Positions 815 to 24,283 of a stretch of 60,096 nt of DNA are shown one piece after another. The notes under the pieces were generated by a model, which was not told where the DNA came from, did not search any database, and worked only from the letters and a program-made list of their open reading frames with translations. Origin of the DNA: a virus (lineage: Duplodnaviria > Caudoviricetes); the IMG/VR virus record IMGVR_UViG_3300020450_000024, positions 1 through 60,096 of that record; one strand, given 5' to 3'. The position numbers and the translations under genes are program-made. The first letter of the stretch is position 1. The number at the start of each line of letters is the position of its first letter.

Positions 815-3396
815 TATGTGTTCAATTCCTCATCTGTAATTTCTTCAAAGAAAGTATCGTTTTCAACTGCATCTACTGAACCGTCCGCTTTAACTTCGTT
901 GCCAACTTTGTTTTGTTTTTCACCTTCTTGATATGCGTTCGTGTCTGAATCACTTGCACTTACGTTTGTAAGTTGATTACGTCTACGTACCATATTAAGT
1001 GTTTGTTTGAATACTCCGCCTTGGAAAACATTTGTTACCTTAACAACCTGATACACTCCTGAGAATGCATTTACTTTTATTGTTTGTTCTGGAAATGTCA
1101 TTATACCTTCAGGACTAAAGTCCACTGGTGTTCTAAAGTTAACATTTACATCAACTTCTCCATTTTGATGATTTATTGAACCATCAGCATTTAAATTTAT
1201 AGTTCCGGGTAAAGGTTCTGAATTGTAATTACCCATTCCACTGTCGGCAATGTAATAAGGATCTCCCCATATCTCCATGTCCGCTGTTACTAGGTCTGAC
1301 CCACTATCTATGATAGCATTGTGGAAACGTCTAGCCACTGCCATTTCTGGAGTCTCTGGTACAGCACCCGCGGCGTCTGATTTGTTTTCAATATCTGGTA
1401 ACGCACCTGGTGTTCCGTTGTTTGGATTCTTGGTGTTACCATCTGCCTGTTTAAAGTTTGTATCGGAAACATCTTCGGCAGTACCAGATGTTTCAACCTT
1501 GTTTGTTCCTGCGTTATCAGTGTTTTTTGCAATACTTGTATAAAATGCAGTATTAATGTTGATATCAAATGAAAGCACATCTTTGTTTGCACCTGTGTAT
1601 ATGTAATTGTATGCTTTTACGCATTGCTTTTCTAATGATTCAACACCCTTTGCTGGTGCAGTAGGTGGAGCAAATTTAGAACTGTGTACCTTGTATGGTA
1701 CTACTTTATATACATATACTCTAGGAGGTCTACCTGATTTCTTTTCCTGTGCTTTGTTTGTTACATTATACACACTGGATTCTATCTTAAACCAATCCTT
1801 AAATCCATTTGCATCTGTTGGTGCATTGTGTCCTATGTTTGCACCATAGTCACTCATGATAACTAATTCTTCTAATATTTTTTGTATGGTCATTCCTTGT
1901 GGAAATTTAATTTCCATATTTTTACCAGGAATAATTTTAATCTTTCCTCTTTCAAAAATACCTTGTTCTTTGTTGTAGGTAAATTTTGCAAGACCAAAAG
2001 GTGCCGCACCCGCGGCTCCATATTCAAATCTTCCTTTTGCTACTTCTCCATTTCCAATTTGGTTAATGTTTACTTTTGCTGTTCCTCTTTGTTTAATACC
2101 TTCTGATACCTTGCTACGTAGAACAGTATAACCTAATTGTTTGCTTAGATATTCATCAAAGTTTGCAGGTACTTCACCAGTTTGTCCTGATAGTGATTCC
2201 CATGCTTCTGCTGTGTTTACAGCCTTTATGGTTCCTGCTGAACTTCCGTCATTGGAAACTGTCGCCGCATTTTCTGATTCAGTGTCGCTTGTTCCTACAC
2301 TGTTTTTGTTACTTGCACGACTTCCTTCAGTAGGAAACAAAATTACATATTCATCTGGTTCTACTACATCACCTTTTTCTTTTTGTTCAAGCAAGTGTGT
2401 GTTTAAAACTGTTGCAATACTTTTTGCTCCACTTTGACAAAGTTCTTCTATGTTTTTTCCTGATACCTGTACATCAATAGGTATTCTTTGTACCTGATCA
2501 CTGAATGCAACATCATTCCACGGTACACCTTTAACACTGTACACACTTCCAGATGCTTCTACACTAAACCCTGCATTGGTCCATTTGAAAGGCATTACCT
2601 TTCTCATTCCTAAACTACTATCTGGATACACAGGATTACCAGATGAATCCCAACCTTTAAATTCTATTATTAAAACATATGGTGCTTGTAAATAATTTTC
2701 ATGTCCTGCTTTCATTGAACAAAGTTGCAGTGTTTGTAAAAACAATCCCATTGAATAAGGTTCATGTACTTCAAATTGAAAACTTGTTGCCTGTGTATTT
2801 CTACTTTTAGGATTGGGTGCAATAAAAGTTTGTATTTCTAAATTATCAATAAAGTATTCTAACTTAATTCCATTTTGTTCGTATGCTGTACGAGCCATAC
2901 CTTTTACACCACTTGAACCTCCTGTTTTTAATAAAACATTTGCAGGATCTTTTACCCTGTATGTAGTGTCTGGATTATTAAGTTCGTCATTTGTTAAACA
3001 ACCAATAGTATAAATGTAATTGTAACTTGCAAATCTATTAAGTGCATTATCCAATGGTAAATCTAATCCAGGAACAACTTTTAAAACTTTACTTTCAACT
3101 TCTTCTTTTTTGATAGGTTCAACATTATCTCCATTCATTTGCTCTGTGTTGCCAGTTTTTGTTGCGGAGTCTTTGATTTGATTTTCTGTGTTACCTGTGG
3201 CTAATTTACTACCACCTACTGTGATGTTATCATTTTGTTTTAAATTTGGATATACTCTATCGCCGAACTCTCCAAACATTCCGAATTCAGGATATCCTAA
3301 GACTTCGTCATAAGCAGAGCCCATCTCTACTAGAATAATATCGCCTTCTACGTTCTTAGAGTTTCTAATATTCTTGTCGATTGGTTTACTAAACAT
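814..3396 (-). CDS. Putative baseplate hub protein (gp27-like)
   Basis: 860 aa, lying between the gp53-like and gp5-like genes. The C-terminal EIWGDPYY...VNFRTPVD...FSGVYQVVKVTNVFQGGVFKQTLNMVR is typical of hub proteins. Exact start uncertain. Confidence 0.6.
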   Translation of the reverse strand: MFSKPIDKNIRNSKNVEGDIILVEMGSAYDEVLGYPEFGMFGEFGDRVYPNLKQNDNITVGGSKLATGNTENQIKDSATKTGNTEQMNGDNVEPIKKEEVESKVLKVVPGLDLPLDNALNRFASYNYIYTIGCLTNDELNNPDTTYRVKDPANVLLKTGGSSGVKGMARTAYEQNGIKLEYFIDNLEIQTFIAPNPKSRNTQATSFQFEVHEPYSMGLFLQTLQLCSMKAGHENYLQAPYVLIIEFKGWDSSGNPVYPDSSLGMRKVMPFKWTNAGFSVEASGSVYSVKGVPWNDVAFSDQVQRIPIDVQVSGKNIEELCQSGAKSIATVLNTHLLEQKEKGDVVEPDEYVILFPTEGSRASNKNSVGTSDTESENAATVSNDGSSAGTIKAVNTAEAWESLSGQTGEVPANFDEYLSKQLGYTVLRSKVSEGIKQRGTAKVNINQIGNGEVAKGRFEYGAAGAAPFGLAKFTYNKEQGIFERGKIKIIPGKNMEIKFPQGMTIQKILEELVIMSDYGANIGHNAPTDANGFKDWFKIESSVYNVTNKAQEKKSGRPPRVYVYKVVPYKVHSSKFAPPTAPAKGVESLEKQCVKAYNYIYTGANKDVLSFDININTAFYTSIAKNTDNAGTNKVETSGTAEDVSDTNFKQADGNTKNPNNGTPGALPDIENKSDAAGAVPETPEMAVARRFHNAIIDSGSDLVTADMEIWGDPYYIADSGMGNYNSEPLPGTINLNADGSINHQNGEVDVNVNFRTPVDFSPEGIMTFPEQTIKVNAFSGVYQVVKVTNVFQGGVFKQTLNMVRRRNQLTNVSASDSDTNAYQEGEKQNKVGNEVKADGSVDAVENDTFFEEITDEELNT

Positions 3397-21759: not shown

Positions 21760-22923
21760 ATGTCAGAACTTTTAGAAAGTAAATGGCAGGATACAAAAGT
21801 TGCGTTGCTCGAAGGCCTAACAGGCAATAAAAAGTCTGTGATGTCCGCTACTCTAGAAAATACTAGAAAGTATTTGGCAGAGGCGGCTACTGCAGGTGCC
21901 ACAGGCGCGGGTAATGTTGCAACTCTTAACAGAGTTATCCTTCCAGTAATTAGACGTGTTATGCCAACGGTTATCGCTAACGAAATCGTAGGTGTACAAC
22001 CAATGACTGGTCCAGTTGGACAAATCCACACACTAAGAGTAAGATATGCAGATTCATTTGATGACGTAACAGCAGGCGAAGAAGCATTATCACCTTTCCA
22101 AATTGGTTTAGGTTACTCAGGTGGCGGATCCACTGATAAAGCAGACGCAACAGCAAACCTAGAAGGTACTGCTGGTAAGCGTTTAAGCATTCAGATCTTA
22201 AAACAAACAGTTGAAGCGAAAACTCGTAAATTGAGTGCTCGTTGGACTTTTGAAGCGGCTCAGGATGCACAAGCACAGCAAGGTATCGATATTGAAGCAG
22301 AAATTATGGCGGCATTAGCCCAAGAAATTACTGCTGAGATCGACCAAGAAGTTCTTAACTCATTAAGAACTTTAGCAGGTGCGGCTGAATCAGACGTTCA
22401 ATACGATCAAAATGCTGTATCAGGTACTGCAACGTTCGTGGGTGATGAACACGCGGCGTTGGCTGTAATGATCAACAGAGCGGCAAACAAAATTGCACAA
22501 CGTACAAGACGTGGTGCTGGTAACTTTGCAGTGGTATCACCGCATACGTTAACAGTTCTTCAGTCAGCAACAACTTCAGCGTTCGCAAGAACAACTGAAG
22601 GTACGTTCGAAGCACCAACTAATACTAAATTAGTAGGTACTTTAAATGGTGCAATGAAAGTTTACGTTGACGCTTATGCATCAGATACTACTGATGTATT
22701 AGTAGGGTACAAAGGAACATCAGAAGCAGATGCGGCGGCGTTCTACTGTCCTTACATTCCATTAATGTCAAGTGGCGTTGTACTTGACCCATCATCTTTC
22801 GAACCAGTTGTGTCTTTCATGACTAGATACGGATATGTTGAGTTAAACAATACTGCTTCTTCATTAGGTAATGCGGCAGACTACCTAGCAAGAGTTAGTG
22901 TAGCAAACGTAACATTCTCGTAA
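21760..22923 (+). CDS. gp23: Major capsid protein
   Basis: RRVMPTVIANEIVGVQPMTGPVGQI, AKTRKLSARWTFEAAQD, EITAEIDQE, FYCPYIPL, FMTRYG. Confidence 0.97.
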   Translation: MSELLESKWQDTKVALLEGLTGNKKSVMSATLENTRKYLAEAATAGATGAGNVATLNRVILPVIRRVMPTVIANEIVGVQPMTGPVGQIHTLRVRYADSFDDVTAGEEALSPFQIGLGYSGGGSTDKADATANLEGTAGKRLSIQILKQTVEAKTRKLSARWTFEAAQDAQAQQGIDIEAEIMAALAQEITAEIDQEVLNSLRTLAGAAESDVQYDQNAVSGTATFVGDEHAALAVMINRAANKIAQRTRRGAGNFAVVSPHTLTVLQSATTSAFARTTEGTFEAPTNTKLVGTLNGAMKVYVDAYASDTTDVLVGYKGTSEADAAAFYCPYIPLMSSGVVLDPSSFEPVVSFMTRYGYVELNNTASSLGNAADYLARVSVANVTFS

Positions 22924-22940
22924 GAGATTGTAAACTTATT

Positions 22941-22970
22941 AAAAGGGCGGCTTTATGTCGCCCTTTTTTT
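22941..22970 (+). terminator. Rho-independent terminator after gp23
   Basis: AAAAGGGCGGC-TTTAT-GTCGCCC followed by a T run. Confidence 0.85.
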
Positions 22971-23014
22971 ATGGCCAAAATATCTATTTTGGTAAACCTT
23001 TTTGCTTTTTTCGG

Positions 23015-23043
23015 TTGCTTTTTTCTACAAACAATGTTATATT
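23015..23043 (+). promoter_or_regulatory. Sigma70-type promoter (extended -10) ahead of a putative ncRNA
   Basis: TTGCTT (23015-23020), 17-bp spacer ending TGT, TATATT (23038-23043). Confidence 0.6.
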
Positions 23044-23049
23044 AATATT

Positions 23050-23280
23050 AACTTTAACACAAACTAAGAGAGTTATAAACTCTTAGCACTTGTGGCAGAA
23101 CAACCCTTCGGCAGGGGGGTAATGCACACTAAAGTCTTTTACGCGGCCAAGTGGCTAGGTTTAGGCGGAGGTGGTTGGAAGTAGATATCATATCTAAACC
23201 TTGCAAAATTCAGATGTGATCTGCTTATCGAAAGTTGGAGGTGAGTTCACAGCAAGGCCTCCCAAGTAGTGTTTTAGTTG
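23050..23280 (+). ncRNA. Putative stand-alone structured ncRNA (~230 nt), unknown family
   Basis: 5' and 3' ends pair (AACT..AACAC / GTGTT..AGTT) and enclose at least 5 helices; GC-richer than flanks; followed by a T run. Confidence 0.6.
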
Positions 23281-23307
23281 TTCCCCTTTTTTTAAATAAA
23301 TATATGT

Positions 23308-23730
23308 ATGAAGGACGAATATACATCGGCCTTTTTCGACATTGTCAAGGAGGCATCCGAGACTACGGGTTATCAATTACCATTAGAAATTGAGTCCTAT
23401 GTAGTAATGCTTCTTGCTGACAAAATAGACAATCCAAATTTTTTACCAAAAACAACTTTTGCACAGGAATTATTTGAAATCCAAAATCATCGATTGAAAG
23501 GAAAAGAACTAGGAGATACTGCTCTATTTCTATCAGGTGTTTTTCCTGAATATTGTGAAAATAAGGTGTCTGTAAGTTACTTTGTTCAGATAGGTAGTAC
23601 AAGTTATACCATGTGTAGTAAACACCTACACAGCGACCTCTTTGAAGCATTAAGCGGTAATTTTAACTTCATTCGTGAGTTCATAAACGTAACAGTCCGC
23701 AAGCCTAATCCATTATTACATATTGGATAA
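23308..23730 (+). CDS. Hypothetical protein resembling a conserved uncharacterised bacterial family
   Basis: YVVMLL...KELGDTALFLSGVFPE...YFVQIGSTSY...FEALSGNF; leaderless (TAAATA 23297-23302, N5, ATG). Confidence 0.65.
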   Translation: MKDEYTSAFFDIVKEASETTGYQLPLEIESYVVMLLADKIDNPNFLPKTTFAQELFEIQNHRLKGKELGDTALFLSGVFPEYCENKVSVSYFVQIGSTSYTMCSKHLHSDLFEALSGNFNFIREFINVTVRKPNPLLHIG

Positions 23731-23836
23731 ATACTTTTGTCATGATAGTGTGCCACATAATTTTTGGTGGACTTATGGGGACAAAACCCCGTAGCAGATA
23801 GAACCTGCATCGGACTTCTAAAAGAGGAGAAAAAAA
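23728..23836 (+). promoter_or_regulatory. Late promoter plus structured 5' leader
   Basis: GATAAATA, then hairpins CCAC/GTGG, TATGGGG/CCCCGTA and GCAG/CTGC before the GAGGAG RBS. Confidence 0.55.
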
Positions 23837-24283
23837 ATGGGTAGACCACTTAATAAAAAGTTTTTCGGAGAGCCAACTGCGGGTGGCAACGAAATCAAAG
23901 TAGAATTTCACAACGGTTCAGCAGTTGTGGAAGGACATATCGTTAAGCAATTAGGATCAAAAAAATTCAGAGTAGCAACAATTGGTGCTGACGACACTGA
24001 ATATGATCGTTTCTTAACAACAGGAAAATTAGCATCAGCATTGACTGGTACTGAAATGGCAATCACTGTAAAAGGTGATGATTCAGAAACATATCAAGTT
24101 TCTAAAATCGCTGGTAGAAAAGCAACTATAATTGCACCAGACGGTACAGGATCAAATGCTTTATCAGGTACGTCAGTAGCATGGAACTTCTCAACTGCAA
24201 CCAATGACGGTGCGGCGCAAGTAGAAGAAGCAGGTGACGACGATACAGCAGGTAACGATGATGACGATTTCGCAAATGCGTAA
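23837..24283 (+). CDS. Virion structural protein (possible head decoration)
   Basis: MGRPLNKKFFG N-terminus; strong RBS; late promoter; downstream of gp23. Confidence 0.6.
   Translation: MGRPLNKKFFGEPTAGGNEIKVEFHNGSAVVEGHIVKQLGSKKFRVATIGADDTEYDRFLTTGKLASALTGTEMAITVKGDDSETYQVSKIAGRKATIIAPDGTGSNALSGTSVAWNFSTATNDGAAQVEEAGDDDTAGNDDDDFANA

Follow-up and report, generated by a model that had tools for sequence, protein, structure and literature searches.

A divergent manA-type structured RNA behind the major capsid gene of an uncultured phage, identified by sequence comparison

Introduction

What occupies the gap behind the major capsid gene of the uncultured phage represented by IMG/VR record IMGVR_UViG_3300020450_000024 (Duplodnaviria; Caudoviricetes), and does it act in its own right or upon the gene that follows it? 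The stretch of DNA analysed here, referred to as the window, comprises positions 1 to 60,096 of this record, and the original prediction, made from its letters without database searches, placed in this gap a separately promoted, end-closed and multibranched non-coding RNA. Comparison with homologues identifies the element at 23055-23276 as a real structured RNA which, on the same kind of evidence, belongs to the manA family (Rfam RF01745) as a divergent subclass and is not a new kind of RNA. We consider it probable (roughly 60%) that this RNA is a free-standing gene acting as a folded particle, and not a switch for the 140-amino-acid (140-aa) gene downstream.

For 16 years manA has had the status of an orphan, classed as a probable riboswitch. 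Weinberg et al. 2010 (PMC2864571) describe it from marine metagenomes, from T4-like cyanophages and from two gamma-proteobacteria, with Photobacterium among the carriers, place it mostly in 5' untranslated regions (UTRs), and rate it a riboswitch candidate; a 2023 cyanophage paper (PMC9964418) still calls its role unverified. New here are a widespread subclass that Rfam-based annotation has missed, with at least 119 stretches in metagenomes, a fold determined well enough, down to a tertiary pair, for structural work, and genomic evidence for manA-type RNAs as stand-alone genes, i.e. an own sigma70 promoter, terminators in canonical relatives and a copy that lies opposite to all of its neighbours. 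Homology, fold, promoter position and the lack of a conserved open reading frame (ORF) are established in this work, and the question of whether such an RNA is a leader or a particle becomes answerable on a defined 222-nt molecule.

Results and Discussion

Homologues and covariation

The element under study is the following:

23055-23276, plus strand: structured RNA of about 222 nt, a manA-type variant ('A-type'), as matched by covariance model R1

Homologues were collected by several routes. A search with the capsid protein led to a sequence-level homologue of the element at 2 of 80 loci, a scan of viral sequences with its conserved blocks returned 116 stretches, many of them chance or coding matches, and a longer-pattern scan of metagenomes returned at least 119. 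Deduplication of the matches listed from both scans left 80 distinct full-length sequences, with 16 more cut by contig ends. The covariance-model alignment used below (A5) has 82 rows, made up of 14 window-like (A-type) sequences and 68 of a second type (B-type). Model R1 was built from 11 B-type sequences alone, none of them window-like; it nevertheless matches the window at 23055-23276 on the plus strand over its full length (model positions 1-213) with 76.6 bits and an E value of 4.3e-22, every other R1 match over the window being no better than E 0.47.

Across the 82 sequences of A5, standard pairs occupy 94.1% of pair cells, as against 31-51% when partners are slid by 1-3 columns. Compensatory change on both sides is seen in 34 of the 51 pairs, and the observed values were reached by none of 500 shuffles. 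Fitting an alignment to a model biases it in that model's favour, a concern that is mostly answered by the slid controls and by the independent A-type sequences; within the 14 A-type copies, compensatory pairs number 13. Covarying homologues, which had been named as a check on the original prediction, are thus present, and they bear out its plus-strand non-coding RNA with paired ends. RNA-library contigs of 4 studies likewise hold the element; marine contigs of this kind match the window, that from run X5 without one mismatch.

Energy-based folding is uninformative for this element, and it is the comparison that decides: the plus strand folds at -70.4 kcal/mol with a z score of -1.64 (11 of 200 shuffles were as stable), and the minus strand gives a z score of -0.82. 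A blastn search of the element against cultured and deposited phages returned just one 39-nt piece. In Vibrio phage 2.275.O, the nearest cultured relative by capsid, the gap behind the capsid gene is 120 nt, which is too small for the RNA.

Fold of the RNA

On the covariation evidence the RNA consists of paired ends (P0) and a 5' hairpin (P1), followed by a five-way junction that is closed by P2 and carries four arms (P3, P4/P5, P6/P7 and P8), with the loop of P3 additionally paired to a bulge of the P6/P7 arm. The parts, all on the plus strand, are:

23056-60 with 23269-73, plus strand: P0, end-closing helix; 98.5% of cells paired, 4 of 4 modelled pairs compensatory (82 sequences)
23064-70 with 23080-86, plus strand: P1 hairpin, CUAAGAG/CUCUUAG, with the self-complementary apical hexamer UUAUAA; 8 of 9 pairs compensatory (82 sequences), 3 of 7 within A-type
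23088-92 with 23263-67, plus strand: P2, ACUUG/CAAGU, closing the five-way junction; 2 of 5 pairs compensatory in A-type
23095-23125, plus strand: P3 arm, with GC/GC (23095-96 with 23124-25), internal loop AGAACAA/UAAU and a hairpin (23103-09 with 23114-20)
23110-13 with 23222-25, plus strand: pseudoknot or kissing contact of the P3 loop (GGCA) with UGCU of the P6/P7 bulge; three Watson-Crick types
23127-23173, plus strand: P4/P5 arm, one long hairpin with irregular pairing (23127-30 with 23170-73; 23134-37 with 23163-66; 23141-42 with 23159-60)
23145-48 with 23153-56, plus strand: P5, with loop AAGU
23174-23183, plus strand: conserved junction strand GUUGGAAGUA, which reads GUUGUGAGUA in B-type
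23184-87 with 23226-29, plus strand: P6, GAUA/UAUC; 4 of 4 pairs compensatory (CCGA/UCGG, GAUA/UAUC, AGGA/UCCU, CCUA/UAGG)
23188-95 with 23212-19, plus strand: P7, UCAUAUCU/AGAUGUGA, with a 16-nt loop containing UUGCAA; covariation
23237-41 with 23258-62, plus strand: P8 hairpin, GGAGG/CCUCC, with a loop including ACAGCAA; 99.8% paired, 2 of 5 pairs compensatory

The closing helix P2 is aligned by cmscan to the closing helix of manA, is supported by the slipped-register column pair 49/283, and is followed directly 3' of its 5' strand by a conserved GUG junction. In the first arm, the one best aligned to Rfam manA, the hairpin ACCCUUC-GGCA-GGGGGGU is 99.6% paired with 3 of 6 pairs compensatory. 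The P4/P5 arm is left unaligned by the model between A- and B-type, and its pairs were counted within the 14 A-type sequences, where each helix group has one compensatory pair (C-G to U-A in L217; G-C to U-A in L255 and L416; G-C to C-G in P5); the B-type counterparts of P4 and P5 covary strongly. The P6/P7 arm spans 23184-23229 and has a 3' bulge, UCUGCU, at 23220-25. The pairing between this bulge and the P3 loop is found in 100% of cells across the 82 sequences, against 30-61% in slid controls, and its central pair occurs as CG (62), UA (14) and AU (6); covariation is blind to whether the loop and the bulge pair within one molecule or between two. In B-type copies alone, the junction strands GGUUG and GAAAGC are joined by two further pairs, again with three Watson-Crick types; one of these, which involves a base of the B-type strand corresponding to 23174-23183, reads GC 52, UA 13, CG 3.

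Every helix quoted in the original prediction can be drawn in the sequence, and the comparison separates them. AACAC/GTGTT at 23056-60 with 23269-73, for which all 4 modelled pairs covary in the 82 sequences, is retained as P0, and compensatory changes uphold both CTAAGAG/CTCTTAG (P1) and ACCCTTC/GGGGGGT (P3), as does covariation the inner GGAGG/CCTCC at 23237-41 with 23258-62 (P8). The proposed CACTTG/CAAGTG helix, with its 3' strand at 23148-53, is unsupported: it has 0 compensatory pairs, is broken in L255, and its strands are taken elsewhere, ACUUG in P2 and CAAGTG inside the conserved hairpin GGCC-NANU-GGCU (P5). AGGTTTAG/CTAAACCT competes with covarying helices and is matched by no helix in any of the 68 B-type sequences, and 7 of its 8 pairs are invariant in A-type and so uninformative; it may be an alternative conformer in A-type. 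CAGAT/ATCTG, with 0 compensatory pairs, also competes with covarying helices. The outermost closure, AACT/AGTT, is unsupported, its first pair being broken in 7 of the 14 window-like sequences, and the T run noted after the RNA is not conserved across homologues.

Two candidate pairings were discarded along the way. AGCA/UGCU, obtained with MAFFT and RNAalifold on a mixed A/B alignment, clashes with P1, and both P1 and P4 were mis-registered in that alignment; CUAAA (23129-33) with UUUAG (23160-64) as P4 was replaced by the arm that RNAalifold draws for A-type, which has compensatory support. Column pairs 48/261, 94/257 and 257/265 of A5 covary in two states and probably mark clades, not contacts. 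At columns 105/157, the foot of B-type P5 (GC 31, CG 34, UA 3), loop base 112, the third of the P5 loop (UAGU vs UACU), changes in step with the pair, which may reflect either clade structure or a contact made by the loop. UUGCAA, present in the A-type P7 loop (23196-23211), is also the self-complementary hexamer at the P1 apex of most B-type copies.

Relationship to manA

Chance matches of terminator type apart, the sole Rfam 15 match on the element is to manA (RF01745). It covers 23064-23272 with 21.3 bits, against a gathering cut-off of 55.2 bits (E 0.0048 in a 1.1-kb search), and a whole-window Rfam search at gathering cut-offs gave no manA match on the element. The original statement that the RNA carries no transfer RNA (tRNA), transfer-messenger RNA (tmRNA) or ribonuclease P signature holds for tRNA and tmRNA, neither having been found; the wider reading that the RNA is without a known relative does not survive the sub-threshold manA match. 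In the reciprocal direction, R1 matches canonical manA copies (L235, L314, L277 and L239) at 20-28 bits, with E values from 1e-6 to 4e-4.

By cmscan, the window aligns to manA along P1, the closing helix and the GUG junction, throughout the first arm and in the last hairpin; the middle stays unaligned. Common to both RNAs are a 5' hairpin and then a closing helix enclosing four arms in the same order (P1, P2; P3, P4/5, P6/7, P8). Both also have the GUG junction and a first arm that combines the internal loop GAAUAA/UAA with a hairpin C-rich on one side and G-rich on the other (aligned at high posterior probability), and the module GUGGCAGAAYAA..UAAUGCA, invariant in the 82 variants, is present in canonical L232, L277 and L314 too. 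The last hairpin, UUG-GNGGG...CCCNC, stands immediately 5' of the closing strand in each, and P8 is aligned to it by cmscan (23235-23267; UG-GGU...ACAGNAA...CC). The phage and marine setting is likewise shared.

The middle of the molecule differs. The second arm of manA comprises three hairpins, among them one with the loop GUGGUG; that of the window RNA is a single long hairpin capped by GGCC-NANU-GGCU. The third arm of the window RNA, P6/P7, stands in the same place as that of manA and covaries, but has no sequence match to the Rfam model, and the junction strands beside it (GUUGNNAGUA and GAAAG) differ from those of manA. The end-closing helix P0 is additional in the window subclass. The legend of the 2010 consensus drawing marks a 'pseudoknot?'; what covariation supports in this work is a different pairing, between loop and bulge. 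Carriers of the subclass include a T4-related giant phage of ~350 kb and a marine phage of ~60 kb, neither being, as far as can be told, a cyanophage.

Genomic position ties the two together. In 12 of 41 related giant-phage records, manA (36.6-56.4 bits) follows the same capsid gene at a distance of 0.4-1 kb and in the same orientation. These canonical units (L082-L093) share with the window the capsid-gene locus, strand, promoter layout, paired ends and an ATAAATA motif thereafter, and often a freshwater-2 leader (at 8 of the 12 loci; a glutamine riboswitch is found at 1 of the 12); they differ in that 11 of 12 have an intrinsic terminator, whereas the window copy has variant arms and no terminator hairpin. 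Since the capsid-gene locus, the promoter layout and the order of arms are shared, the window carries a variant cassette at the place of manA. Further intermediate forms exist on other contigs (L235, L264-266, L271).

The subclass is, from these scans, absent from Rfam 15 and widespread in marine phage DNA. A first-look search with RF01745 misses the window copy, giving no candidate in the record from which the window comes, and is therefore unfit for counting the variant subclass. In the literature on the manA motif, freshwater-2, RF01745 and phage orphan riboswitches we found no paper that describes the subclass, although the 2010 alignments and figures S13-16 of the preprint discussed below may contain it. 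A group of other loci (L264, L265, L274, L283, L293, L306 and L313) shares the GUGGCAGAAYAA-hairpin-UAAUGCA module, has other downstream arms and scores 14-17 bits with R1; it may be a further manA-type subclass. At L082, a glutamine riboswitch aptamer (RF01739; 1946-1993, minus strand; 47.1 bits, cut-off 35) was observed upstream of manA.

Promoter and transcription unit

The features that delimit the RNA are:

22945-22970, plus strand: intrinsic terminator of the capsid gene, as read from the sequence (stem GGGCGGC/GTCGCCC, loop TTTAT, T run 22964-70)
23016-23043, plus strand: sigma70-type promoter (-35 element TTGCTT, 23016-21; extended -10 TG, 23035-36, and TATATT, 23038-43)
23296-23302, plus strand: ATAAATA, a motif resembling T4-type late promoters, located between the RNA and the 140-aa ORF
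23308-23730, plus strand: 140-aa ORF, starting 31 nt 3' of the RNA

The letters of the promoter as first proposed, TTGCTT, TG and TATATT, are all present; the spacer was given as 17 nt and is 16 nt by count, and the predicted start lies near 23050. The window promoter matches the consensus at 8 of 12 positions and was missed by a simple scan that requires 9. Its position recurs: in most homologues (80 rows scanned) a sigma70-type promoter ends 4-11 nt before the start of the model. Scores of at least 9 of 12 are reached in 51 of 80 homologues as against 4.5% of control windows, of at least 10 in 34 (0.57% of controls) and of at least 11 in 23 (0.05%). A stricter scan, demanding A2 and T6 in the -10 element, was dropped because its counts were too low. 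In the 12 related loci, canonical manA is preceded by GGTTGAC-N-TGTTATATTA, and the window layout, GGTTGCT-N-TGTTATATTA, is alike. The recurrence ahead of homologues supports the earlier claim of an own, host-polymerase promoter in a region otherwise served by T4-type late promoters; under the mechanism proposed here, the host polymerase would transcribe the ~222-nt RNA from this promoter, starting near 23050.

Upstream, the terminator read at 22945-22970 should set the capsid transcript apart from the RNA unit. At L005 its stem is swapped for another complementary pair, AGGCCC/GGGCCU, again followed by a T run; an automated scan for transcription signals did not list the window terminator.

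Free-standing gene or leader

The arrangement of other copies bears directly on how the RNA is used. In the complete 59.8-kb genome of phage 023Pt_psg01, an intergenic B-type copy, 98.6% identical to that at L115, is opposite in strand to 18 of 18 annotated neighbour genes, and at L115 and L368 a conserved small ORF is convergent with the RNA and ends at its 3' end. Canonical manA of the related giant phages has its intrinsic terminator within ~40 nt in 11 of 12 cases. This context, i.e. the promoter, the opposite neighbours, the convergent ORFs, the canonical terminators and the late-promoter motif that stands between the RNA and the ATG of the next gene, favours a free-standing gene. In three studies, contigs from RNA libraries extend over 23087-23241, 23020-23273 and 22998-23258 without reaching the 140-aa gene; such contigs cannot define RNA ends, so that coverage limited to the RNA is a weak hint, and the lack of cover of the 140-aa gene in runs X5, X8 and X10 is not evidence of its silence.

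The principal alternative is that the RNA is a cis-acting leader, i.e. a riboswitch-type sensor forming the 5' UTR of the 140-aa gene on early sigma70 transcripts, adjusting early expression of this gene to a ligand through its fold, and bypassed by late transcripts from ATAAATA, a reading we regard as unlikely but deserving to be taken seriously. The gene is on the same strand, its ATG is 31 nt away and no terminator hairpin intervenes; a co-oriented ORF lies 13-31 nt 3' of the RNA in 10 of the 14 A-type copies with enough sequence, and an ORF lies 5-36 nt 3' of it in several B-type copies; one RNA-library contig, X1, covers RNA and gene together; and manA was rated a riboswitch candidate in 5' UTRs by Weinberg et al. 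2010 (PMC2864571). Against a leader stand the lack of a conserved expression platform, the stretch from P0 to the ATG being the least conserved part and a terminator-like site being found in 1 of 79 copies, and the identity of the gene 3' of the RNA, which varies from copy to copy (140 aa, 80 aa, 330 aa and others). Some copies, moreover, face a convergent gene or oppose all neighbours, and canonical relatives end in terminators. Two other readings fare worse. A decoy, sponge or anti-defence RNA acting through two GGAGG motifs, on ribosomes or on a defence protein, would be well served in its timing by an independent promoter and early-type expression, and has nothing else in its favour: the motifs that the original prediction offered as a feature, and as the basis of the sponge idea, are unconserved, B-type reading GGGAG/GGAAG and GUGGG there, and both sites are within helices. 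For a self-cleaving ribozyme, grouped with it, no Rfam ribozyme family matched the element at E values up to 10, and we judge this whole group of roles improbable. That the conserved element is protein-coding, as the 60-aa minus-strand ORF (23194-23376) or a small plus-strand ORF, is scarcely credible. ORFs of 30-60 aa can be drawn, but of the 13 other A-type copies L217 alone keeps intact the minus-strand frame, singled out beforehand as the rival that might be the conserved element, and the remaining 12 have a stop or a shift in it; there is no PHROG match, the changes in helices are compensatory, and none of the frames stays open over the whole element throughout the 82 copies, the longest uninterrupted runs measuring 28-73 codons.

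Several observations weigh against the reading of a free-standing manA-type particle that we prefer. The manA cut-off is unreached (21.3 vs 55.2 bits) and two of the four arms are unlike canonical manA. A terminator-like site occurs within 90 nt in just 1 of 79 variant copies, and in the window early transcripts would meet no obvious stop in the 31 nt before the same-strand 140-aa gene. Contig X1, of 1161 nt, includes both the RNA and this gene, two contigs start upstream of the predicted start (22998 and 23020), and in 38 of 68 rows the following ORF has the orientation of the RNA; this last count comes from a crude ORF picker that conflicts with the GenBank annotation for the L115-type context, and is a rough figure. 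Oligomers, finally, are known in vitro alone and for canonical manA alone, from the preprint considered in the next section.

Two further arrangements were observed next to homologues. Many B-type loci (e.g. L378, L380 and L355) have long perfect hairpins without a U run 5-60 nt 3' of the RNA, in some cases with GGAGG and an ATG immediately after; such hairpins may act as leaders in their own right for the following gene, or may stabilise the RNA at its 3' end. At L277, canonical manA (1592-1815, minus strand) lies directly between two apparent tRNA genes, with a T-arm-like end upstream and GGGAUGUAGCUCAGUU... downstream, both identified by appearance, which suggests that this copy may be co-processed with tRNAs.

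Possible assembly

As a free-standing product, the RNA would act as a folded particle in its own right, and the nearest precedent for what such a particle might be comes from canonical manA. In the cryo-electron microscopy study of Ren et al. (July 2026 preprint, bioRxiv 10.64898/2026.07.01.735769), canonical manA is reported to assemble in vitro into pentamer-based decamers, an octamer and an icosahedral-like cage of 60 subunits, the pentamers being joined by kissing loops that include an L3-L8' contact. According to the preprint, which demonstrates no cellular function, manA relatives retain the core fold and vary in their peripheral helices. The window RNA resembles the self-assembling manA in its family core, and the loop of its P3 has a covarying partner where L3 is among the contact loops of the cage; it is unlike it in being a subclass known from sequence, with peripheral arms that are not those of the constructs described in the main text. 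By this analogy the window RNA might form oligomers, a possibility that we regard as tentative.

A more specific version, which we hold as doubtful, is that the subclass is a self-assembling RNA ring or cage, made early from a host-type promoter by unrelated marine phages (the ~350-kb giant and one of ~60 kb), in which the pair of P3 loop and bulge and the apex of P1 would serve as contacts between subunits. In most copies the P1 apex is a self-complementary hexamer (UUGCAA in most B-type, also UUCGAA and CUGCAG; UUAUAA or UAAUUA in A-type), with UUGCAG, UUAUUA and UAAUUG as exceptions; the apex of a hairpin is palindromic by construction, so that the symmetry of this hexamer is a weak lead. 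If such assembly were true, manA-type RNAs would be free-standing structural gene products of phages and not riboswitches, and their interchangeable peripheral arms would set the geometry.

ROOL and GOLLD are ornate phage-borne non-coding RNAs that form homo-oligomers in vitro; they are much larger RNAs, set between tRNA genes. This setting resembles that of the canonical manA copy L277, and neither family has an Rfam match on the window element.

Phage and neighbouring genes

The 60-kb fragment comes from an uncultured virus, and its CheckV completeness of 17% implies a genome of ~350 kb. The ORF at 21760-22923 encodes a T4-type major head protein (phrog_138, E 7e-103), and the closest deposited relatives of this capsid protein (identity 67-71%) belong to giant myoviruses of 349-469 kb that infect Vibrio, Serratia, Erwinia, Yersinia and Sinorhizobium. 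PHROG and Pfam searches with the 140-aa ORF at 23308-23730 gave no family match; relatives of it are encoded at 15 viral loci.

The motif ATAAATA, which we take to be the T4-type late promoter consensus, stands between the RNA and the ATG in 9 of the 14 A-type copies. It is depleted in the window, with 11 copies as against 26 expected by chance, and all 11 are intergenic, in sense and 5-120 nt upstream of an ORF (e.g. 26393-99, 35793-99, 42472-78 and 57103-09), so placed that they look like phage late promoters. Directly 3' of one such copy (23727-33), a freshwater-2 RNA (RF02980) is found at 23753-23839 on the plus strand with 65 bits, above its cut-off, and includes the ribosome-binding site and the ATG of a 148-aa ORF at 23837-24283.

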